The notes under the pieces are model-generated. The model searched no databases, was not told the DNA's origin, and saw nothing but the letters and a program-made list of their open reading frames with translations. 55,637 nucleotides of DNA from Candidatus Berkelbacteria bacterium (GTDB lineage: Bacteria; Patescibacteriota; UBA1384; DTJR01), in NCBI GenBank assembly GCA_026397175.1, contig JAPLVK010000023.1:1-55637 (forward strand), given 5' to 3'. The translations under genes and the position numbers were made by a program. Every line of letters begins with the position of its first letter. The first letter of the stretch is position 1. Of this stretch, positions 25,099 to 49,054 are shown piece by piece.

Positions 25099-25221
25099 TT
25101 ACTGTATTACTGCTGTTTGGGCGGTGGGTTTGTTGGGTTTTTGCTCAGTATGGTAGCCGACGGAGTAGGAGTCAACGGTTGGAGTAGAAACTCCGTCAGT
25201 ATTTGAAAGTGTTGTTTCGAT
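25099..25221 (-). repeat. Orphan copy 3 of the 3' end of gene 26957-27994
   Basis: Encodes IETTLSNTDGVSTPTVDSYSVGYHTEQKPNKPTAQTAVIQ*. Begins 2 nt after the hicA stop. Confidence 0.85.
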
Positions 25222-25223
25222 AA

Positions 25224-25457
25224 TTATTTTATCTTCTTTAAAATTTCGGTGTATTTCTCAACAGAAATTTCCAAAATTCTCAAGTTATTTTTAATAACAA
25301 AAACTGGAAGCGATCTATAGGTTGGCAATACTATCGGTCTTTTGAGCCCTGCTCGTTCATAAATTCTATGGCTTCCTTTTTGCCTTACAAATTCACATTC
25401 GACAAACAAGAGGAATTTTTCAAATTCCTTCCATTTGATCGCCGTAACTTTTGGCAT
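25224..25457 (-). CDS. hicA: HicA-family mRNA interferase toxin
   Basis: 77 aa with FEKFL...VRQKGSHRIYER...LPTY. Confidence 0.8.
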   Translation of the reverse strand: MPKVTAIKWKEFEKFLLFVECEFVRQKGSHRIYERAGLKRPIVLPTYRSLPVFVIKNNLRILEISVEKYTEILKKIK

Positions 25458-25458
25458 T

Positions 25459-25743
25459 TCACGCTTTTAGAGCGAGCGAAAATTTTTTGGTTTGATGTGA
25501 GATCTCGGTTGGTGGAAACCAATTTGAATCGGTCTTTTTCCAACCCAGGGAAGTCAAGACATCATTCATTGTTCCCTTGCGGTCTAATTCCTCAAAAAAT
25601 ATTTCGGTGGATTCTTCAAACATTTTATGCGCTCTTTCGATTGAACTGGCACAAGTTGATAAATCAAGCACGGGAGAATAAGCGACAAAATCGTCGCCTT
25701 CCTTAAAAATTGAAACCGGAATTGAAAAATAAATGTTTTTCAT
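25459..25743 (-). CDS. hicB: HicB-family antitoxin (UPF0150 fold)
   Basis: 94 aa with PVSIFKEGDDFVAYSPVLDLSTCASSIERA. One-nt gap to hicA. Confidence 0.75.
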   Translation of the reverse strand: MKNIYFSIPVSIFKEGDDFVAYSPVLDLSTCASSIERAHKMFEESTEIFFEELDRKGTMNDVLTSLGWKKTDSNWFPPTEISHQTKKFSLALKA

Positions 25744-25801
25744 AAGTTTATAGTACTAAATAAGAACAAAATTGCAATATTTTCGACTTACGATGTCAAT
25801 T

Positions 25802-25839
25802 TTCTGCCACTTGAACGCGATCGCGTTCAAGTGGCAGAA
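25802..25839. repeat. Perfect 38-bp palindrome with a GCGATCGC centre
   Basis: TTCTGCCACTTGAACGCGATCGCGTTCAAGTGGCAGAA. It abuts the -35 (TTGACA) of the hicBA promoter. Confidence 0.9.
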
Positions 25840-25885
25840 TGTGAATAATAAGACGAGTTCATTTTGAATTGAGAACTTAAAAAAA

Positions 25886-26026
25886 TTACTGAACCACAGC
25901 AGTGATAGCAGTAGGTTTGTTGGGTTTTTGCTCAGTATGGTAGCCGACGGAGTAGGAATCAACGGTGGGGGTAGAAGCACCATCGGTATTAGAGAGTGTT
26001 GTCTCGACTTGGAAATATCTGTATTT
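25886..26026 (-). repeat. Orphan copy 2 of the 3' end of gene 26957-27994
   Basis: Encodes KYRYFQVETTLSNTDGASTPTVDSYSVGYHTEQKPNKPTAITAVVQ*. Begins about 22 nt after the hepT stop. Confidence 0.85.
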
Positions 26027-26048
26027 AATATGCTTAAATAAACAAGTG

Positions 26049-26411
26049 CTACCGTTTGCTTGTAATGCCAAATTCGTTTTCCAGTATTTTTGATAACTGT
26101 TTTTCCAGTTGTGGTGTATGAATGGTAATTGTACCCCAAACACCTTTTAGATCAACTCCGAAATAATCGTGTATCAAAACATCACGCATACCGGCGGCTT
26201 TTTTCCACTCAACTTCCGGATGAGCTTTTTTGAAATCAGAACTGACTCGCTTTGCCGCTTCGCCAATTATTTCGAGCTGACGGATGACCGCACTTTGCAT
26301 GTAAATGTTATCAAGAAAATGTTCCTTGCCTGCCTTGCCACGAAAAGCACTGATATTATTCGCGGCCTCCAACATGTGCTCGAGAAAAAGTTGGTTATTA
26401 TTTTTTGGCAT
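26049..26411 (-). CDS. hepT: HepT (DUF86) RNase toxin
   Basis: Rx4H motif in MRDVLIHDY. 14-nt overlap with the upstream NTase gene. Confidence 0.8.
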   Translation of the reverse strand: MPKNNNQLFLEHMLEAANNISAFRGKAGKEHFLDNIYMQSAVIRQLEIIGEAAKRVSSDFKKAHPEVEWKKAAGMRDVLIHDYFGVDLKGVWGTITIHTPQLEKQLSKILENEFGITSKR

Positions 26412-26703
26412 ATATAATTTTCATGGTTTTGTGAACTTCGGTTTTCATTTTTGGATTAAGTCCGGATTCAGTTATTACATCAACGGGAGAATCAAGTTTT
26501 TTTTCTAAATTGTTTTTAATGTCAACAAGGTCATAGAGAGAGTACTCTTTTTTCGGGTCGAAATTAAGCAAGAAGTCGTAATCACTGTTGATTCGCGCCT
26601 GATTTTTTGCTCGGGAACCAAAAATCGCCGCGCTCACAACACCATGTTTGGTAAGCAGCGGAATAACTTTAATCCTTAATTGTTCTAACTCTTTGTCGCT
26701 CAT
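26398..26703 (-). CDS. mntA: MntA minimal nucleotidyltransferase antitoxin
   Basis: FGSRAKNQARINSDYDF (GS-x10-DxD). Confidence 0.8.
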   Translation of the reverse strand: MSDKELEQLRIKVIPLLTKHGVVSAAIFGSRAKNQARINSDYDFLLNFDPKKEYSLYDLVDIKNNLEKKLDSPVDVITESGLNPKMKTEVHKTMKIIYAKK

Positions 26704-26790
26704 ATTGAGTGAATTATATCACATTTTTTGAACTTTACATCTCGGCAAAGCCAAAGCTCTAGGTTGATATTTCTACAAAAAAACATAACT

Positions 26791-26824
26791 TTGCGCAAAT
26801 TGTCCGATCGGACAATTTGCGCAA
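26791..26824. repeat. Perfect 34-bp palindrome with a CGATCG centre
   Basis: TTGCGCAAATTGTCCGATCGGACAATTTGCGCAA. Confidence 0.9.
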
Positions 26825-26881
26825 GAATATAAGTATTTTATACCTTATGAGGAATTGGGGATATAGAATTTTTGATTGTTT

Positions 26882-26915
26882 TTGCGCATTTCTGGCGATC
26901 GCCAGAAATGCGCAA
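26882..26915. repeat. Perfect 34-bp palindrome with a GCGATCGC centre
   Basis: TTGCGCATTTCTGGCGATCGCCAGAAATGCGCAA. Same TTGCGCA...TGCGCAA ends as 26791-26824. Confidence 0.9.
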
Positions 26916-26956
26916 TAAGTTGATAAATTCAATAAATAAAACAAAAGAGAACTTTA

Positions 26957-27994
26957 TTATTGTATTACTGCGGTTTGGGCGACGGGTTTATTAGGTTTCT
27001 GTTCCGTGTGATAGCCGATGGAATAAGAGTCAACAGAGGGGCCAATAGTTGGAGGACAAGGAATTTCTGAACCCGGACCATCGAAGCAATGTCGCAAATC
27101 GTTACCGTTATCACTCCTGGAAAGAGTCGTTTCTACTTGTAGATACCGGTATTTTGTTTCGCCGGAGCGAGAAGTAACTAATCCAGAAATATCTAAAGCA
27201 TTTCCCGATGTTGGAGTTTGTACTGCCGACCAAGGATCAGTCCAATCAGTTCCATTTACCGATGATCTGAATCTATATGTTACTGCAGTATTAGCCGGAA
27301 CAGTTTCAGTTGGAGTAAATGTCTGCCACTGCCAGAAGTTTGTGCCGCCGTCGATTTGAGTTGCGGCAGTGGTGTGGGTACCAGGAGCAGTCGGGGGATA
27401 AAATTCTATCTCGTCAAAAAACAATGATGTAGAATACGCAGGAGTTACGCTAATTCGGACATATCTGTAAGTCATGTTGGCTGAGCCGCATCCGCCACAG
27501 TGCCAAAGACCGTCAGGTCCACCCGGAAAATGCTCATAAATTGCCGTCCAATCCGTTTCATTTGTGGATCCATAAATACTTACATCTCCTATACTTGATC
27601 CAACAAATTCATAGAAATATACACAACTGAGCTGACGATTTCCGCCAAAATCAATTTGCCAGTAGAATGGATCGCCTGTTGTTCCCATAAAAGCAGTGCT
27701 AAGATTTGCATCAACAAGGTTTAATTTAGTTGAATCAAACTTAGAGGCCGTAACTGTCATTCCCGAGGTGTCAATCTTGGGGGGAGGCAGTTGGGAAATG
27801 TTTAACGAACCCGATGACGATTCAATATTGCTTGAAACTCCAGCACTCCAATCCGAAGAGGACGATAATATTTGCGATGCGTTGCTAGCATGTACGGCAA
27901 TCTTTTGTTTAGATTTCCAAAAATATTGAACACCAGGAACAAAAGCAACAACCAAAACTATGATTATTACAAATCTTAAAACTTTATTTTTCAC
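26957..27994 (-). CDS. Secreted discoidin (F5/8 type C)-domain protein
   Basis: N-terminal TM/signal sequence. FYWQIDFGGNRQLSCVYF...YRYVRISVTP...FFDEIEFY, followed by a beta-rich domain. GTG start. Confidence 0.7.
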   Translation of the reverse strand: MKNKVLRFVIIIVLVVAFVPGVQYFWKSKQKIAVHASNASQILSSSSDWSAGVSSNIESSSGSLNISQLPPPKIDTSGMTVTASKFDSTKLNLVDANLSTAFMGTTGDPFYWQIDFGGNRQLSCVYFYEFVGSSIGDVSIYGSTNETDWTAIYEHFPGGPDGLWHCGGCGSANMTYRYVRISVTPAYSTSLFFDEIEFYPPTAPGTHTTAATQIDGGTNFWQWQTFTPTETVPANTAVTYRFRSSVNGTDWTDPWSAVQTPTSGNALDISGLVTSRSGETKYRYLQVETTLSRSDNGNDLRHCFDGPGSEIPCPPTIGPSVDSYSIGYHTEQKPNKPVAQTAVIQ

Positions 27995-28078: not shown

Positions 28079-28645
28079 TTACTTCGCGTAGAACATCCGC
28101 AGGGACAGCTTGATCTTGCCCTGCTCGGGAAGCTCTACGGTCAGCGAGCCGAATACGGCTGCTCGCTGGAACATCTCGTCTCCGTTGCCCTGCAGTGCGC
28201 GGATCACGACCCCGGTCGTATCCCCTGGTTCCAGCAGCACCCTCCCCTGATCACGCTTGAGGACAATAAGATCGGGGAAGGTTCTATCAAAGCAGGTAGA
28301 CGCGGGAGGCTCGTACTTGAAACACCACGCGAGGCCAGTGTAAGCATGCTGCGGTATCGCACGCCTGGAGACTCCGCCGTTGAATCGCAGGGTTCCTAGA
28401 TCAAGTACCGCAGACCTTGATCTTAACCCCTTGCGTTCTTCCTCCTCCACGGTGGATACGGCCGAGTCGTGCTTCTGGTCGTCGTTAAGGTTCTCATACC
28501 CCTCCGGCAGACGACCAGCGTGCGACCTCTCAAAAGCCTGAACAACCGGGTCGCTTGTGAGCGGTGGCGGCTTGGGGGTGGTCAACGCCAAACAGACCAA
28601 GGCCGCCGCGACTACGATCAGGATTGCAATCGTGAGTTTAGACAT
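28079..28645 (-). CDS. Membrane-anchored or secreted hypothetical protein (GC-rich island)
   Basis: ATG at 28645 with AAGGAG 9 nt upstream. MSKLTIAILIVVAAALVCLALT signal anchor. Confidence 0.7.
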   Translation of the reverse strand: MSKLTIAILIVVAAALVCLALTTPKPPPLTSDPVVQAFERSHAGRLPEGYENLNDDQKHDSAVSTVEEEERKGLRSRSAVLDLGTLRFNGGVSRRAIPQHAYTGLAWCFKYEPPASTCFDRTFPDLIVLKRDQGRVLLEPGDTTGVVIRALQGNGDEMFQRAAVFGSLTVELPEQGKIKLSLRMFYAK

Positions 28646-28832
28646 TGGGACAACTCCTTGTGCCGCGGTTAGCGGTGTGGAATAACTGCTACTCGTTAGC
28701 TGCACTCAAGCCGGCCACGAGATTTCGTACTATCTCTGTACTATCAAGGAACTACGCGAACTGCTTAGGTTTCGCCGGCTCGATGGCCGCTGAAACCCAA
28801 ACCCCGTTGAACGGGGCACAGCAGATCGGACA

Positions 28833-36612: not shown

Positions 36613-36795
36613 ATGAATATTCGCAATTTCTGTATTATCTCCCATATAGATCACCCCACACCGTTCCTTACTGTGAAACCTGCCCGCAGATGCTACGCAT
36701 CAGGCGTTGCAGGCGGGCGGATTACATCCTGTTATCACAGTGCGTCAGGTTGCGGGGCGGGACTCATACAACTAATGTTTGTGGAGATCTTGTGA
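36613..36795 (+). other. Duplicated lepA 5' end (42 nt) fused to a 137-nt GC-rich insert. Forms a 60-codon uORF whose TGA overlaps the lepA GTG.
   Basis: 36613-36654 encodes MNIRNFCIISHIDH, the same peptide as 36792-36833, with 6 substitutions that are all synonymous. GTGA start/stop overlap at 36792-36795. Confidence 0.8.
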
Positions 36796-38666
36796 ACATT
36801 AGAAACTTCTGTATTATCTCCCATATAGATCATGGCAAGTCGACGCTGGCCGATCGGCTTTTGGAGATCACGGAAACGGTTGAAAAGAGAAAAATGCAGG
36901 ATCAGATTTTAGACAACATGGAATTAGAGCGCGAACGCGGGATCACAATTAAATTACAACCGGTGCGCATGCTGTGGAAGCCAAAACAAACGGAAATATC
37001 AAATCCCAAATCTCAAGCTCCAAATAAATCTCAAATCCCAAATTTTGAAAATTGTGACATTGAAAATTCATTGTCCCGCGAAGCGGGATCGGCTTCTGGC
37101 CGAAAAATTGAAAATTGTAAAATTGAAAATTTAGATTCAGTTCAGTACGAACTGAATCTAATAGATACTCCCGGACATGTAGATTTTACTTACGAGGTTT
37201 CAAGATCGCTGGCAGCTGTCGAGGGCGCGATTTTGCTGGTTGACGCAACCCAAGGGGTTCAGGCGCAGACGCTGGCCAATCTGGAATTAGCCAAAAAAGC
37301 CGGCCTGGTGATAATTCCGGCGATTAATAAAATTGATTTACCCGAAGCCCGCCCCGAAGAAGTTGCCTTTGAAATCGCCGATATTTTAAATTGCGATTTA
37401 GACGACATTTTATTTATTTCGGCTAAAACGGGAGAAGGTGTCGAGAAATTAATCGAAAATATTATCGAGAAAATTCCGCCGCCAAAGGTCAATTCATCCA
37501 AATTTGCCCGAGCGCTTGTGTTTGATTCTTTTTATGATGATTATCGGGGTATTGTGGTTTTCGTCAGAGTCATGGATCAAGAGTTTAAAAAAGGCGACGA
37601 AATTACTCTTGTCAGACAAAAGAAAACGACTCAAATCAGCGATTTGGGCCGAATTGAGCTCTCCTTAAAGAGCGACGAAAAACTTGAAGCGGGAGAAATC
37701 GGTTATTTTGTAACGACATTTAAAGAGGTCGCGGAGGCGAGGGTCGGCGAGACCGTGGCTTTAAAAAGCGAAGCAAGCGAAGTTGAACTTTTAGAGGGCT
37801 ACAAAGAGCCGCGGCCGATGGTTTATGCCGAAATGTATACAAACTCCGGCGATGACTACGCTCGGCTGCGCGACGCGCTTTCCAAATTAAAGCTGTCCGA
37901 TTCTTCGATTACTTACGAGCCGACATCATCTCAAGCGTTCGGGTTTGGTTTTCGGCTGGGATTTTTGGGGCTACTCCATTTGGAAATTGTTAAAGAACGG
38001 CTCGAACGCGAGTATGATCTGGAGTTAATTATCACCACGCCGACGGTAGATTTTCAAAAAAACGCGCAAGGGGAATTTGAGGAGCCGTGGGTTAAAATTG
38101 AAATCATCACGCCGAAGGATTATTTGGGGTCGGTGATTTCACTACTTCAGGAAAGGCGCGGTGAGCAGGTTGATATTAAACATTTGGAAGAAAAAGTGCT
38201 GATTCATTACGAAATTCCGCTGTCTGAAATTATCGTTGATTTTTACGACAAAATTAAATCGGTTACTCGCGGTTATGGCTCTCTAAATTACGAGCTGATC
38301 GGTTGGCGCAAATCGGACTTGGTCAAACTTGATATTATGATCGCCGGCGAAGCTATAGATGCATTTTCGAGGATGGTTTATCGCGGATTTGTCGAAAGAG
38401 TTGCCAGACAAGCGGTCGAAAAGTTAAAGGAATTTGTGCCCAGACAAAATTTTGAAGTTAAAATCCAGGCGGCTGTGGGAGGAAAAATTTTAGCAAGCGA
38501 GCGGATTTCGCCGTTTAGAAAAGATGTAACCGAAAAACTCTATGGCGGTGATGTCACCAGAAAAAGAAAATTGCTCGAAAAACAGAAAAAAGGCAAAAAA
38601 AAGATGGCAACCGTTGGGAGAGTAGAACTTCCAACGGATGTTTTTGTGAAATTGTTGAAATACTGA
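36792..38666 (+). CDS. lepA: Elongation factor 4 (LepA)
   Basis: NIRNFCIISHIDHGKSTLADR, DTPGHVDF, NKID, and the LepA C-terminal domain. GTG start with GGAG 6 nt upstream. The upstream ATG at 36690 lies in the GC-rich insert. Confidence 0.93.
   Translation: MNIRNFCIISHIDHGKSTLADRLLEITETVEKRKMQDQILDNMELERERGITIKLQPVRMLWKPKQTEISNPKSQAPNKSQIPNFENCDIENSLSREAGSASGRKIENCKIENLDSVQYELNLIDTPGHVDFTYEVSRSLAAVEGAILLVDATQGVQAQTLANLELAKKAGLVIIPAINKIDLPEARPEEVAFEIADILNCDLDDILFISAKTGEGVEKLIENIIEKIPPPKVNSSKFARALVFDSFYDDYRGIVVFVRVMDQEFKKGDEITLVRQKKTTQISDLGRIELSLKSDEKLEAGEIGYFVTTFKEVAEARVGETVALKSEASEVELLEGYKEPRPMVYAEMYTNSGDDYARLRDALSKLKLSDSSITYEPTSSQAFGFGFRLGFLGLLHLEIVKERLEREYDLELIITTPTVDFQKNAQGEFEEPWVKIEIITPKDYLGSVISLLQERRGEQVDIKHLEEKVLIHYEIPLSEIIVDFYDKIKSVTRGYGSLNYELIGWRKSDLVKLDIMIAGEAIDAFSRMVYRGFVERVARQAVEKLKEFVPRQNFEVKIQAAVGGKILASERISPFRKDVTEKLYGGDVTRKRKLLEKQKKGKKKMATVGRVELPTDVFVKLLKY
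36991..37131 (+). repeat. Family D repeat element with a GC hairpin core, inserted in frame in the lepA G-domain
   Basis: Encodes ...NPKSQAPNKSQIPNFENCDIENSLSREAGSASGRKIENCKIENL.... The DNA has the same arm/core architecture as 4951-5044. Confidence 0.75.
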
Positions 38667-47075: not shown

Positions 47076-48584
47076 GCTTCCAGTTGTTATAATTATATGG
47101 TTTGAAGTTAGTTTATTGGTTTGAGCAAAATTATAATCAGGAAACAGTTCCGTATAAAGTTTGGTCGGAACTGCTTTTTTGATTTTGCGGTCTTTTACTT
47201 CAATTTCCTCCCAGAATAGATTTAGATATGAACGCTTGAGTTCTTCAGGGGCCTCTCTATAAGCATTGCCAATGTTATTTCCCATTTGAACTAATCTCTC
47301 AAAAAGAAGAACATTCTCTTTTCTTCCGACTTCCAGCTTCGCGAGCTCATCATTAACATCCTTTATCTCCTTCTCAGCGTCGCGAGAAAGCCTTTGATAT
47401 ACCTCAAGGGGTATTTCTCTGTCTGCAAATTGAATTTCCGCGTTATGAAGCCTTTGCTCAAGTTTTTCTTTTCTAATATTGAGAATACGCCTCTCCTCAC
47501 TAACTTTTTTGTGCGATCGCCCTATAATCTCTTTGGCCTTCTCAATAATCTCAAGAATAAATTTGTCTGGTAATTTGAGGTTATCAAATAAATTTTCAAC
47601 CTGCTTCTCTAAAGCTGACACCTCAATATTTTGCTTTTTGTTGCTATGTTTTGCGGATGGACAATGATAATAGGACTTCTTGTTGGTATGATGCTCTGCC
47701 GTGTACTTATGTCCACAAATTGCGCAGCGAACAAATCCTCTTACTATAAAAGAAAACTTTCTAGATCTATCTGCTCCGCGATTATGCTCCAAGAATACTT
47801 TCTGGCACTGATCAAAGAGATCTTTAGTGATGAGGGGCTTGTGATTGCCCATCTTCTCTTCTCCTGCGAATCTCATAAATCCATAATAAAATGGATTTTT
47901 TAAAATTCTCGCAAATTCTGCACGCGAAACCCTTTTCCCCTTTTTTGTGACTAATCCCATCTTAAAAAGTTTGTCATTAATCTTCTCTGCTCCATATAAA
48001 CCTGTCGCAAACATTTCAAATGCTTTTTTAATTAAAGGTCCCTTTTCTGGATGAATTTCAATAATTCTCTCGGGTTTTTTATCGGTTCCGATATTGTTGT
48101 TTAAGAAACCTAGCGGTGCTTCCCTAGGGTACCAGCCATCCCGAAACTTTTCTTGCATAGACTTCAAAACCTTTCTTCCCGTAATTTCCGATTGAAATCC
48201 ATTAATACCAGCTACAATTAGATCAACCAGATTGCCCTCTGGAGTGTCCTCGCTTAATGATGGCTGATTAACTGCAATTATCTTAGTTCCTGCCTGCTTA
48301 AGTATCGCTTTGATCTGAAGGTGGTCTGTAGGGTTTCGCGCTAGCCGATCTGTGTCAAAAACAAGGAGGGAGTCAATATCCTTCTTTTGACATCTTGCGA
48401 TTGTGTCTGTTAAGGCCACTCTTCTCATATTTGTTGCACTTCGGCCACCATCTTCAAAAACTCCTTCTACATCATAGCCATTATCTTTCGCATACCTTCT
48501 GCAAATTTTTATTTGGTCTCCAATTGAGCGACCCTCATCAACCTGTCGCTTTGTGCTGACACGCGCGTAAATTAAGCACTTCAC
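47034..48584 (-). CDS. Large serine recombinase (integrase)
   Basis: MKCLIYARVSTKRQ (catalytic Ser), DRLARN, recombinase domain, CAICGHKY...YYHCPS zinc ribbon, coiled coil. GTG start. The last 14 codons are the complement of the tRNA-Lys 3' half. Confidence 0.88.
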   Translation of the reverse strand: MKCLIYARVSTKRQVDEGRSIGDQIKICRRYAKDNGYDVEGVFEDGGRSATNMRRVALTDTIARCQKKDIDSLLVFDTDRLARNPTDHLQIKAILKQAGTKIIAVNQPSLSEDTPEGNLVDLIVAGINGFQSEITGRKVLKSMQEKFRDGWYPREAPLGFLNNNIGTDKKPERIIEIHPEKGPLIKKAFEMFATGLYGAEKINDKLFKMGLVTKKGKRVSRAEFARILKNPFYYGFMRFAGEEKMGNHKPLITKDLFDQCQKVFLEHNRGADRSRKFSFIVRGFVRCAICGHKYTAEHHTNKKSYYHCPSAKHSNKKQNIEVSALEKQVENLFDNLKLPDKFILEIIEKAKEIIGRSHKKVSEERRILNIRKEKLEQRLHNAEIQFADREIPLEVYQRLSRDAEKEIKDVNDELAKLEVGRKENVLLFERLVQMGNNIGNAYREAPEELKRSYLNLFWEEIEVKDRKIKKAVPTKLYTELFPDYNFAQTNKLTSNHIIITTGSWRAVWDSDPRRSP

Positions 48585-49054
48585 TTGGCCCCTTCTCTTG
48601 CGATTTTAGCAGCTCGGATGCCTGCTGATATTTTTTGGCCATGCACTTTTGATTGATAATGGCCTACCGATGCGATGATCAGGTCAATCATTTTGCTTTC
48701 AGGCGTTTCATCATCACCCATTAATTGCCCAATAGAAATTATCTTTGTCCCAACTTTTGCAAGTGATATTCTGAGATTGATATAATCCTCAAAATTTCTT
48801 ACTAATCTATCCATACCTTGAACAATAATGGCAGAGATATCCTTCTCTTCTTGGCATTTTGCAATCAGATTGCTAAGGCCTGGCCTCTTAATGTTGTTTG
48901 CATCTTGTCTTACATCCTGGAAAACTCCTGCGACTGAATATCCGCAACTTTCAGAGAACTTCTTACACTCTTTAACTTGATTAATAAGGGATTTGTTCGG
49001 CCCATTATAACTTTGCATATCACCTTTTACTCTTGTGTAGATTAAGCACTTCAT
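48581..49054 (-). CDS. Resolvase-catalytic-domain paralogue lacking the nucleophilic Ser
   Basis: MKCLIYTRVKGDMQS (Lys where the Ser is expected) and GMDRLVRN. Its stop overlaps the integrase GTG (GTGA). Confidence 0.7.
   Translation of the reverse strand: MKCLIYTRVKGDMQSYNGPNKSLINQVKECKKFSESCGYSVAGVFQDVRQDANNIKRPGLSNLIAKCQEEKDISAIIVQGMDRLVRNFEDYINLRISLAKVGTKIISIGQLMGDDETPESKMIDLIIASVGHYQSKVHGQKISAGIRAAKIAREGAK

Follow-up and report, generated by a model that had tools for sequence, protein, structure and literature searches.

Restriction-modification (R-M) gene complexes are known to insert with long target duplications (Nobusato et al. 2000; Furuta, Abe and Kobayashi 2010, PMC2853133). Insertion of these addiction modules generates direct target duplications of 46–47 bp in strain comparisons and of about 400 bp (397–423 bp) in a repeat screen, involves no mobility gene and has been found for the most part in competent species; its mechanism is unknown, and the repeats have been proposed to serve amplification and release (PMC2853133). 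Toxin-antitoxin (TA) modules occupy small spots on chromosomes and behave there as selfish, autonomous units (PMC13617665). Integration of e14 or phage 21 at icd leaves the 3′ pseudogene icdC (Hill et al. 1989; PMC13626634), CIMEs with tandem accretion have been described in streptococci at the 3′ ends of fda or tRNA genes (Pavlovic 2004; Bellanger 2011; reviewed in PMC5704250), and plasmid dif (pdif) sites of Acinetobacter, imperfect XerC/D sites of 11-6-11 layout, flank each module and alternate in orientation (PMC13141974, PMC6449649). In the ultra-small Berkelbacteria bacterium studied here, two TA pairs lie in tandem where a surface lectin gene ends, and this array may be a tandem TA example of insertion with long target duplication, a kind known for R-M genes.

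The window, i.e. the whole stretch of DNA analysed, spans 55,637 nt. On its complement strand, the intact lectin gene (26957-27994), which ends in VDSYSIGYHTEQKPNKPVAQTAVIQ followed by the stop codon, precedes in order palindromes, mntA-hepT, a 47-codon orphan tail, a palindrome, a HicB-like gene with hicA and a 41-codon orphan tail. Orphan tail 1 (25886-26026, complement strand, 47 codons including the stop) reads KYRYFQVETTLSNTDGASTPTVDSYSVGYHTEQKPNKPTAITAVVQ and lacks its own start codon in context, while orphan tail 2 (25099-25221, complement strand, 41 codons including the stop) reads (I)ETTLSNTDGVSTPTVDSYSVGYHTEQKPNKPTAQTAVIQ and its 3′ flank continues into native downstream genes. All the array features located by an earlier note on this DNA are present: three tail copies with a TA pair between each, which a repeat search of the window returned as one three-copy direct-repeat family of 122 nt (orphan 1 and the intact end are 83% and 61% identical to orphan 2, respectively); orphans that begin within about 25 nt of a toxin stop codon (22 nt from the hepT stop at 26049-26051 and 2–3 nt from the hicA stop at 25224-25226); a near-identical core common to both orphans (46 identical nt); and a longer variant in the intact gene. 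The last, functional copy (26957..27154, complement strand), given as KYRYLQVETTLS ... VIQ and stop in the alignment of the three copies, has a loop lengthened by 19 codons between its last two strands. The repeats on both sides of each TA operon, here and at a second locus on contig C20, are 122–141 nt long, above the 30 bp used as threshold. The inserts measure 0.8–1.1 kb, well under 20 kb, and hold nothing but a TA pair with its promoter and palindromes, with no transposase or integrase. As the earlier note had also remarked, no integrase or recombinase gene was found in the array or its flanks; the genome encodes one tyrosine recombinase (C21), and serine recombinases elsewhere, the nearest about 21 kb off. 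When the 46-aa tail was searched against all six frames of the complete 1.0-Mb genome, orphan 2 was recovered with E = 8.6e-21 and three other full-length genes at 1e-22 to 1e-23; these matches are far beyond chance.

The first operon consists of mntA (26398..26703, complement strand), which codes for a putative nucleotidyltransferase antitoxin (Pfam Polbeta, 4.5e-14; NTP_transf_2, 4.4e-11), and hepT (26049..26411, complement strand), which codes for a putative HEPN RNase toxin (Pfam HepT-like, 4.8e-26), the two genes overlapping by 14 nt. Against the NCBIfam models MntA_antitoxin and HepT_toxin, they scored 50.7 and 42.4 bits, respectively, both under the equivalog cut-off of 60; the motifs GS...DYD (GS..DxD) and RDVLIH (Rx4H) can be read from the respective sequences. 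With a nucleotidyltransferase gene followed by a HEPN toxin gene in one operon and Pfam matches above the cut-offs, mntA-hepT is predicted to be a type VII TA system. In the second operon, hicA (25224..25457, complement strand) codes for the HicA toxin domain of HicAB TA systems (Pfam HicA_toxin, PF07927, E = 1.3e-7, 32.1 bits versus a cut-off of 27). The gene upstream (25459..25743, complement strand) codes for a putative antitoxin of 94 aa that is HicB-like by position only. It had no match in Pfam, NCBIfam or the PDB, and its single-sequence AF2 model (pLDDT 49) was too poor for use. Its homologues are found in Berkelbacteria at 70–97% identity, and some distant ones (45–52% identity) bear the JGI name HicB family; because there was no profile or PDB match, we based the label hicB on gene position and these JGI names.

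DNA similarity to other Berkelbacteria delimits a hicBA unit running from promoter to stop codon (25220..25780, complement strand). Units with 78–83% DNA identity to it stand at unrelated loci of other Berkelbacteria, in at least four contexts, where the similarity ends sharply at the promoter and stop codon and the lectin tail is absent, showing that the operon is portable alone, without the tail. The nearest relative of hepT (76% aa identity) has as its 3′ neighbour a GC-rich ORF of the type that precedes each lectin paralogue here. TA clusters of the same genome on C21 and C26 have neither gene-end repeats nor palindromes.

The gene at 26957..27994 (complement strand) codes for a predicted membrane-anchored lectin of 345 aa with an N-terminal TM helix, a CBM32/F5-F8 type C head (Pfam F5_F8_type_C, E = 3e-10) and a conserved C-terminal module of ~125 aa. 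The best Foldseek domain matches of its AF2 model (pLDDT 84) are CBM32 modules (TM 0.78–0.82); in this model, the tail consists of strands 284–293 and 320–330 and a disordered stretch of the last 15 aa. The lectin is one of four paralogues in the genome that have unrelated heads (15–35% identical) and a common C-terminal module (last ~125 aa 80–100% identical, 80–87% at the DNA level). Four genes with a nearly identical C-terminal module of ~375 nt would provide many homologous landing pads, which makes the lectin gene a plausible target.

A second paralogue (C20:4986-6961) has the same layout, with the gene followed by palindromes, a different hicBA (a third TA operon), a decayed orphan tail and a palindrome. 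The C10 paralogue has neighbours as at C20, without TA operon or orphan; this paralogous locus is the sole "empty" analogue, as neither 61 relatives nor the family yielded an orthologous locus. A 15-codon orphan tail lies beside a GIY-YIG element in a related genus. The tail copies are mosaics of each other and of the paralogue tails. The first ~100 nt of orphan 1 are close to the functional tail of C20 (74 nt with 1 mismatch; 89% over 113 nt), its middle 46 nt are those of orphan 2, and its end is unique. C20-type sequence stands on both sides of mntA-hepT, namely palindrome P1 with 11 nt of flank (98% identical to the C20 copy) on one side and a C20-type tail on the other, while the right half of the functional tail of the present locus (C24), which includes the 19-codon insert, is only ~75% like C20. 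Overall, the tail copies are 61–83% identical, with ~80% of the differences at third codon positions, and the tail protein is conserved (2–4 aa differences).

The serial insertion proposed in the earlier note stands in part. Its TA operons as inserted units and its orphans as real tail copies find support in the recurrence of the layout at C20 and in the orphan tail of another genus. Its claim that each cassette brought a replacement terminus does not agree with the tail-less hicBA units elsewhere or with the different 3′ neighbour of the closest hepT relative, and a single insertion site is contradicted by orphans that start at codons −46, −41 and about −39 (the two orphans here and that of C20), leaving no single crossover core. 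Joints made by homologous or illegitimate recombination would fit these differing starts better than one att core.

We give about an even chance to the reading that the array arose by insertion with long target duplication, was built and shuffled by host homologous recombination between the tails, and is stabilised by TA addiction. Two TA operons would have been inserted within the lectin gene end, each becoming bracketed by direct repeats of the last 41–47 codons, so that the lectin would keep its full reading frame and two untranslated tail stubs would remain. Host homologous recombination between tail copies, rather than a dedicated integrase, would drive the process either by a Campbell-type single crossover between the resident tail and a stub linked to incoming TA DNA, or by gap repair that copies a "tail-TA-tail" slot of one paralogue into another. 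Once installed, the TA pair would penalise loss of the cassette via recombination between the flanking repeats. The founding junctions are poorly explained, since three toxin stop codons lie 0–25 nt from stubs that start within a 32-nt span, which random ends would not produce. Nor does a simple, recent Campbell integration starting from today's C20 allele fit well, as it predicts a C20-like right half of the C24 tail. Target duplication in situ followed by neutral decay does not fit the divergence of the copies and its third-position bias, which point to donor-derived tails or to later gene conversion from paralogues. The lack of gene-end repeats around the TA clusters on C21 and C26 likewise counts against the preferred reading.

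We consider it unlikely that the array consists of decayed integrative elements joined in tandem by CIME-like accretion. Larger elements would have been placed in the lectin 3′ end by a large serine recombinase or by the genome's only Xer-like enzyme, in cis or in trans, and each would have carried a replacement tail as e14 does at icd; the second would have integrated into the functional att copy, and deletions would have left only the self-protecting TA pairs. A duplicated gene 3′ end with the ORF restored is what classically marks e14 at icd/icdC (PMC13626634), and recombinase-less tandem att-flanked arrays have been described as CIMEs resulting from decay and accretion (PMC5704250). Every tail copy here has its own 3′ UTR, followed in two of the three by a palindrome of a different type, in two other Berkelbacteria (L065 and L066) a large serine recombinase lies 1.5–2 kb from hicBA homologues, and the genome contains eight resolvase-domain matches. 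However, the recombinase is missing from the array and its neighbourhood, the three orphan start positions leave no common core, the hicBA unit occurs elsewhere without a tail, and no autonomous element with this tail as att site was found in 61 related genomes. For lack of an array recombinase, and given the differing starts and a copy identity of 61–83%, we did not classify the locus as a site-specific 3′-end element of the e14/icd type or as a CIME.

It is rather improbable that the conserved tail is itself an integrase-free attachment site, a "tail slot" in which TA operons would behave like integron cassettes moved by host recombination. Breaks beside or inside the tail, arising at the perfect palindromes 41–45 nt downstream or through GIY-YIG elements that target the tail, like the one inserted in a tail in the related genus, would be repaired from another tail copy, thereby copying the cassette behind that copy. 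If so, cassettes would hop among the four paralogues and between strains, and the heavy synonymous recoding of the tails would be selected as resistance to cutting or further recombination.

That the orphans are remnants of tandem paralogues, i.e. that three lectin genes once stood in a row with TA operons between them and deletions spared only the last 41–47 codons of genes 2 and 3, seems to us quite improbable. Tandem paralogues do exist in relatives (two adjacent genes in G006; two tails 1.1 kb apart in ADurb.Bin212), the GC-rich ORF that follows the closest hepT relative is of the lectin-preceding kind, the orphans diverge in a coding-type, third-position manner, and each has its own UTR, orphan 1 also its own palindrome. 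Yet three independent deletions (two here and one at C20) would be needed, all starting at most 25 nt from a toxin stop codon, and neither the heads nor the GC-rich ORFs upstream of them have left a trace. We hold decay less likely mainly because the ends of three independent remnants fall inside the same 32-nt span of a ~1-kb gene; constraint at the nucleotide level cannot account for such a common endpoint, as synonymous sites vary freely between copies.

The genome contains 35 CGATCG-centred palindromes, all intergenic; three of them, perfect and with arms of 14–17 bp, lie in the array. I4 (26879..26918, TTGCGCATTTCTGG type), 42 nt past the lectin stop codon, has identical copies on C7 and C26. 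P1 (I6; 26791..26824, TTGCGCAAATTGTC type), upstream of the mntA promoter, has identical copies on both sides of the C20 TA cassette and another on C26, and precedes both mntA-hepT at C24 and hicBA at C20 with the same 11-nt flank. I3 (38 nt, 25802..25839), 45 nt past the orphan 1 stop codon and touching the −35 box of the hicBA promoter, is of a stem type unique in the genome. All five PaaX_M-domain genes adjoin a palindrome, three between a matching pair and two with a single copy, and such genes lie directly 3′ of the C20 array and 3′ of the "empty" C10 paralogue. We nonetheless judge it very improbable that the palindromes are recombination sites for PaaX/Cas2-like proteins that captured the cassettes, the tails being passengers between sites: no palindrome follows orphan 2, most palindromes lie 20–100 nt past unrelated genes with no cassette near, none accompany the TA clusters on C21 and C26, and these proteins have no known catalytic activity.

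The genome is a 27-contig metagenome-assembled genome, and the 141-nt overlaps of its contig ends suggest assembly at k = 141. The longest exact repeats at the locus are only about 46–75 nt, shorter than this k, which argues that the array was assembled soundly. Several segments are 100% identical in independent assemblies of other samples: Logan L032, which starts within I3, backs I3 and matches at 100% hicBA, orphan 2 and the stretch downstream of them, L031 backs P1, mntA-hepT and the start of orphan 1, and six contigs, all breaking within I4, back the lectin gene and I4. Contigs of six other samples end at 25156, the entry to the core common to both orphans, where a k = 31 graph is forced to branch if both are present. 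In view of this agreement, and although in L031 a C20-type right half follows hepT and the left part of orphan 1, and although the I4-to-P1 spacer and the link from the right part of orphan 1 to I3 were found only in the contig analysed here, a chimera of strain variants with one cassette each, chained via the common tail repeat, is hardly credible.

Three further candidates were rejected. An integron does not fit the only tyrosine recombinase being on C21 or palindromes that are perfect, upstream of the operons and absent after cassette 2. A diversity-generating retroelement (DGR) was discarded because no more than 11 of 21 mismatches involve an adenine in either copy and the differences follow codon position 3; the genome's own DGRs are on other contigs. 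The likeness to polymorphic-toxin arrays drawn in the earlier note fails because the conserved tail, two beta-strands and a disordered peptide, encodes no toxin.

Orphan cdiA-CT/cdiI or rhs-CT/immunity arrays resemble the present locus in that 3′ fragments of the main gene stand downstream, in tandem with small gene pairs, and retain homology that permits recombination with the main gene. Here, however, the tail is conserved and is not a toxin domain, and the gene pairs are generic TA systems instead of cognate immunity genes. The pdif modules of Acinetobacter plasmids are similarly small, often TA pairs, and lie beside short palindromic sites with a 6-bp centre (PMC13141974, PMC6449649); in contrast, the palindromes here are perfect, are members of a family that is spread over the genome and linked to mini-PaaX genes, and do not bracket the second cassette. 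Like e14 at icd, the insertions occupy the 3′ end of a protein gene that stays intact, with a displaced C-terminal fragment at the far end, and recombination between two copies would delete the element; e14 is nevertheless about 15 kb long, with its own integrase and a defined att core, against inserts of about 1 kb with variable repeat starts. With CIMEs, the array shares recombinase-less units with att-like flanking repeats in tandem at a gene 3′ end, and a proposed origin in decay followed by serial integration, but CIMEs have a precise att site in common with a known ICE and its integrase, and neither a partner element nor a core site was found here. As in R-M insertions, an addiction-type module of few genes, with no mobility gene, is flanked by long direct target repeats (about 46 to 420 bp) that often overlap a gene 3′ end. 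The locus differs from these in its cargo of TA operons, in its two tandem insertions with three repeat copies, in its target, the conserved tail of a four-member gene family, and in repeats that are mosaic and diverged at third positions instead of near-identical, the empty-site comparison being to the C10 paralogue only.

The array is read on the minus strand and begins with an intact lectin gene (26957-27994), whose 42-nt 3′ untranslated region (UTR) leads to I4 (26879-26918), the first of three perfect palindromes centred on CGATCG. After a 57-nt spacer and the second palindrome, P1 (26791-26824), come mntA (26398-26703) and hepT (26049-26411), which overlap by 14 nt, and, 22 nt beyond hepT, orphan tail 1 (25886-26026), a dead copy of the lectin gene's last 47 codons including the stop. 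A further 45 nt separate this tail from the third palindrome, I3 (25802-25839), which abuts a TTGACA box and precedes a 94-aa gene coding for a putative HicB-like antitoxin (25459-25743), hicA (25224-25457) and, after a gap of 2-3 nt, orphan tail 2 (25099-25221; 41 codons). Native small genes lie downstream of orphan tail 2. All three tail copies belong to a single direct-repeat family: over 122 nt, orphan tail 1 and the intact end share 83% and 61% identity, respectively, with orphan tail 2, and a six-frame search of the whole genome with the tail as query gave E-values of 1e-20 to 1e-27. Coordinates, repeat family and six-frame search thus bear out the layout described in the earlier note, a gene end present three times with toxin-antitoxin (TA) pairs between the copies, in every detail except 'hicB'. 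Of the pair named hicB-hicA, hicA stands; the 94-aa protein has no profile support and owes its name to its position and to the names of its homologues. Its predicted model was too poor for a structure search, and designer PPR proteins proposed as PDB relatives were dismissed as matches with no aligned stretch. Sites found by a promoter and terminator scan were no commoner than in shuffled sequence, and exact-protein look-ups of the junction-spanning open reading frames (ORFs) matched nothing.

Contig C24, the window, belongs to a 1.0-Mb genome assembled in 27 contigs (93% complete), assigned to Candidatus Berkelbacteria by its protein neighbours, whose contig ends overlap by exactly 140-141 nt, the signature of a de Bruijn assembly with k = 141; the longest exact repeats among the tails measure ~46-75 nt. 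Segments of the array recur at 100% identity in independent Logan assemblies of other runs. The lectin gene, its UTR and I4 are covered by six Logan contigs, every one of which breaks within the palindrome, while L032 spans I3, hicBA, orphan tail 2 and 900 nt downstream, and L031 spans P1, mntA-hepT and the start of orphan tail 1. Six further Logan contigs enter from the downstream GT2 gene and end at 25156, which lies one base plus 30 inside the 46-nt core common to both orphans; a graph with k = 31 must branch at this point if both orphans exist. Two segments are seen in the window contig alone: the spacer between I4 and P1, and the stretch linking orphan tail 1's right part to I3. At positions 740-943 of L031 (Logan ERR15302224), the sequence behind hepT is the left part of orphan tail 1 joined to a right half and a 3′ UTR of the type found at the lectin paralogue on contig C20. 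This join might reflect a genuine alternative junction, such as a cassette sitting in the C20 slot, a circle or an inversion, or equally a graph artefact, since orphan tail 1 and the C20 tail have a 41-nt stretch in common, longer than Logan's k of 31, and the graph cannot pair the flanks; we rejected it as ambiguous proof of an alternative junction.

The lectin protein carries an N-terminal transmembrane helix, a CBM32 / F5-F8 type C head (Pfam E = 3e-10; Foldseek TM 0.78-0.82 to CBM32 modules) and a C-terminal beta module that matched no Pfam family. Four members of the family are encoded in the genome (C24; C20:5897-6961; C10:8898-9932; C14:4820-6574). Their heads are unrelated (15-35% identity), that of the C14 paralogue being repeat-rich and Kelch-like in appearance when judged by eye, and their last ~125 aa share 80-100% identity (80-87% for the DNA). 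In the AF2 model (pLDDT 84), the duplicated piece comprises the last two strands (284-293 and 320-330), the loop linking them and a disordered 15-aa C-terminus, and a lone orphan tail is predicted to be unable to fold. An unusual feature of the functional C24 tail is the presence of 19 additional codons in the loop between the last two strands. Upstream of each paralogue, both here and in relatives, lies a GC-rich ORF (~55% GC compared to ~42% for the genome; window 28079-28705, C20:7116-8242, C10:7582-8814 and C14:3557-4767) coding for a protein with an N-terminal transmembrane helix and no Pfam family, the C14 product being prepilin-like.

Two other loci share this organization in part. On C20, 44 nt separate the paralogue from a copy of P1, beyond which lie another palindrome, a hicB-hicA pair unlike that of the array (Pfam E = 3.9e-9 and 4e-19), a decayed orphan tail split by a 66-nt hairpin element (C20:5125-5183), a second P1 and a PaaX/Cas2-like gene. 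In G007, a genome of a related genus, an element bounded by inverted repeats and carrying a GIY-YIG gene (Pfam E = 1.9e-14) lies at positions 1653-1982 of locus L019 (G007:C27), with an intact tail on one side and, on the other, an orphan made up of the last 15 codons (E = 0.002). This element shares its inverted repeat, CCCCCACACCA, with the insert in the C20 orphan tail; the repeat also bounds an 82-nt element at C6:15845-15926. This recurrence therefore identifies the tail of the lectin family as a repeated site of insertion with duplication, and the earlier note's description of serial insertion at the 3′ end of the gene is a fair one. On C10, the paralogue precedes a palindrome and a homologous PaaX/Cas2-like gene with neither TA pair nor orphan, making it an 'empty', albeit paralogous, analogue. 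The family was found in 11 of 61 related genomes, among which the sole short-frame tail fragment sits at a contig edge. Loci combining a TA pair and an orphan were found neither in the metagenome scan, which returned only distant relatives (28-35% identity), nor among the Berkelbacteria and allied loci of the genome scan (40-67%), and a search for the empty site by synteny yielded none, the flanking GT2 gene having no orthologue in the family. Elsewhere in the window (36613-36833), a GC-rich hairpin insert of 137 nt, beginning CCCCACACC, lies between two copies of the opening 14 codons of lepA; the copies look synonymously recoded, a terminus duplication of the same kind at a 5′ end.

The TA operons also occur away from lectin genes. 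The hicBA unit (25220-25780) has counterparts with 78-83% DNA identity in no fewer than four other Berkelbacteria contexts, the similarity starting at the -35 box and stopping 2-4 nt past the hicA stop codon, and the lectin tail is absent from all of the contexts compared (L061-L066, G006 and G039). A third gene follows hicBA in two contexts, and a large serine recombinase lies 1.5-2 kb off in two others. In L061 (5001-5815) and L068 (1538-2355), from two other Berkelbacteria, a conserved third gene of 96-97 aa, absent here, begins 2 nt after the stop of the same hicB-like/hicA pair. For the C20 hicBA pair, units from two further genomes match at 71%, with the similarity confined to the coding region. 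Behind the closest hepT (76% aa identity) lies a GC-rich ORF and no tail. Since hicBA and the closest hepT both occur without a tail, the TA operons are portable alone and the tail is no fixed part of them; the claim that each cassette brought its own terminus is thus not supported. The analogy with polymorphic-toxin arrays is not supported either. We also rejected a rule by which every TA pair in the genome would be inserted with a gene-end duplication, as TA clusters on C21 and C26 lack gene-end repeats. On C21 (32720-35150), a second mntA-hepT pair and a gene for a 493-aa HATPase_c_3 protein lie between two perfect direct repeats of 38 nt, with a hicA-like gene alongside.

Three other origins of the array were considered. 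The cassettes could be decayed elements that a recombinase had placed and that came to form a tandem series, e14/icd and CIME being the analogues. Consistent with the earlier remark that no integrase is visible, we found no recombinase gene in or beside the array; the genome codes for one tyrosine recombinase (C21) and has eight resolvase-domain matches, two of which, in open frames of 523 and 163 aa, adjoin one another at 48135-49045 of the window, some 21 kb away from the array. Contig C14 (6.8 kb) holds a further serine recombinase beside the Kelch-headed lectin paralogue.

Alternatively, the orphans could be the remains of tandem paralogues decayed in place, and tandem genes of this family are indeed present in relatives.

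The two orphans differ at 21 positions, 17 of which are third codon positions (15 synonymous versus 3 non-synonymous codons), and other pairs of tail copies show a similar excess, a pattern typical of divergence under selection on the protein and not of neutral decay of a duplicate in situ. The differences possibly stem from distinct functional genes or alleles, or from later gene conversion by the four functional paralogues. The first ~100 nt of orphan tail 1 resemble the functional C20 tail (a 74-nt stretch with 1 mismatch; 89% identity over 113 nt), the following 46 nt match orphan tail 2 exactly and the last 28 nt are unique, and C20-type sequence lies on both sides of mntA-hepT, P1 and 11 flanking nt matching the copy downstream of the C20 gene at 98%. 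From this patchwork, conversion or crossing-over among the tail copies is evident. Because synonymous sites are free to vary, the orphans lack constraint at the nucleotide level and are therefore unlikely to be retained for a function in cis. A template/variable repeat pair of a diversity-generating retroelement was rejected, as the mismatches are not adenine-specific. At least five candidate retroelements of that type, called by eye from ORF translations, occur elsewhere in the genome (C3:88359-92976, C20:15319-17985, C20:100226-101737, C26:34513-37570 and C11:19540-23671), each with a reverse-transcriptase-like ORF, an Avd-like ORF and repeats of 105-130 nt (maximum 262 nt) at the 3′ ends of target genes. 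At C3:66915-67550, a 155-aa gene lies between two identical 76-nt repeats.

Capture of the cassettes driven by the palindromes is the third of these origins. The palindromes may promote breaks or act as insulators; we found no evidence that they serve as crossover sites. The genome contains 35 perfect or near-perfect palindromes centred on CGATCG with arms of at least 14 nt, all intergenic and typically 20-100 nt past a stop codon. One lies 41-45 nt after each intact lectin tail and after orphan tail 1, and none follows orphan tail 2. A palindrome adjoins each of the five PaaX_M-domain (PaaX/Cas2-like) genes (Pfam E = 1e-20 to 6e-24), three of the genes being bracketed by a matching pair and two having a single copy; sites linked to this family include the three in the array as well as C20:4257-5853, C10:9973-10747 and C3:59875-60593. 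Integron attC or pdif sites were rejected, as the palindromes are perfect, occur throughout the genome in association with mini-PaaX genes and do not follow the second cassette. Perfect palindromes of 120 nt (C20:115505-115624) and 80 nt (C7:14546-14625), with nested CGATCG centres, are unusually long for a bacterial chromosome.

We favour insertion with long target duplication, and propose that host homologous recombination between tail copies would build and shuffle the array, either through one crossover involving a tail stub attached to TA DNA or by gap-repair copying of a tail-TA-tail slot between paralogues; addiction to the TA pair would then disfavour loss via the repeats. The weak point is the founding junction, where three different toxin stops abut tail stubs starting within 32 nt of one another, which no model explains well.

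How TA pairs enter and spread in chromosomes without a mobility gene is an open question, and to our knowledge the only route described is 'insertion with long target duplication', documented for restriction-modification genes, without a mechanism. The present locus is unusually informative, with two tandem insertions, a third at a paralogue, an empty paralogous site and visibly recombining repeats, all in a compact natural system within a 1-Mb genome having very few recombinases. It raises two testable ideas: that host homologous recombination on the tail of a multi-copy gene suffices to move addiction cassettes, and that addiction itself keeps repeat-flanked inserts that would otherwise be deleted. 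As for known systems, the association of palindromes with PaaX_M genes resembles in layout that of REP elements with RAYT genes. In its published definition, insertion with long target duplication involves an addiction module flanked by direct repeats of more than 30 bp, with no gene for mobility (PMC2853133). The layout of the array falls within this definition; for the accompanying empty-site comparison, no orthologous locus was found in 61 relatives or in the family, C10 offering a paralogous analogue. We read the array as a new variant of this known, mechanistically unexplained kind of insertion.
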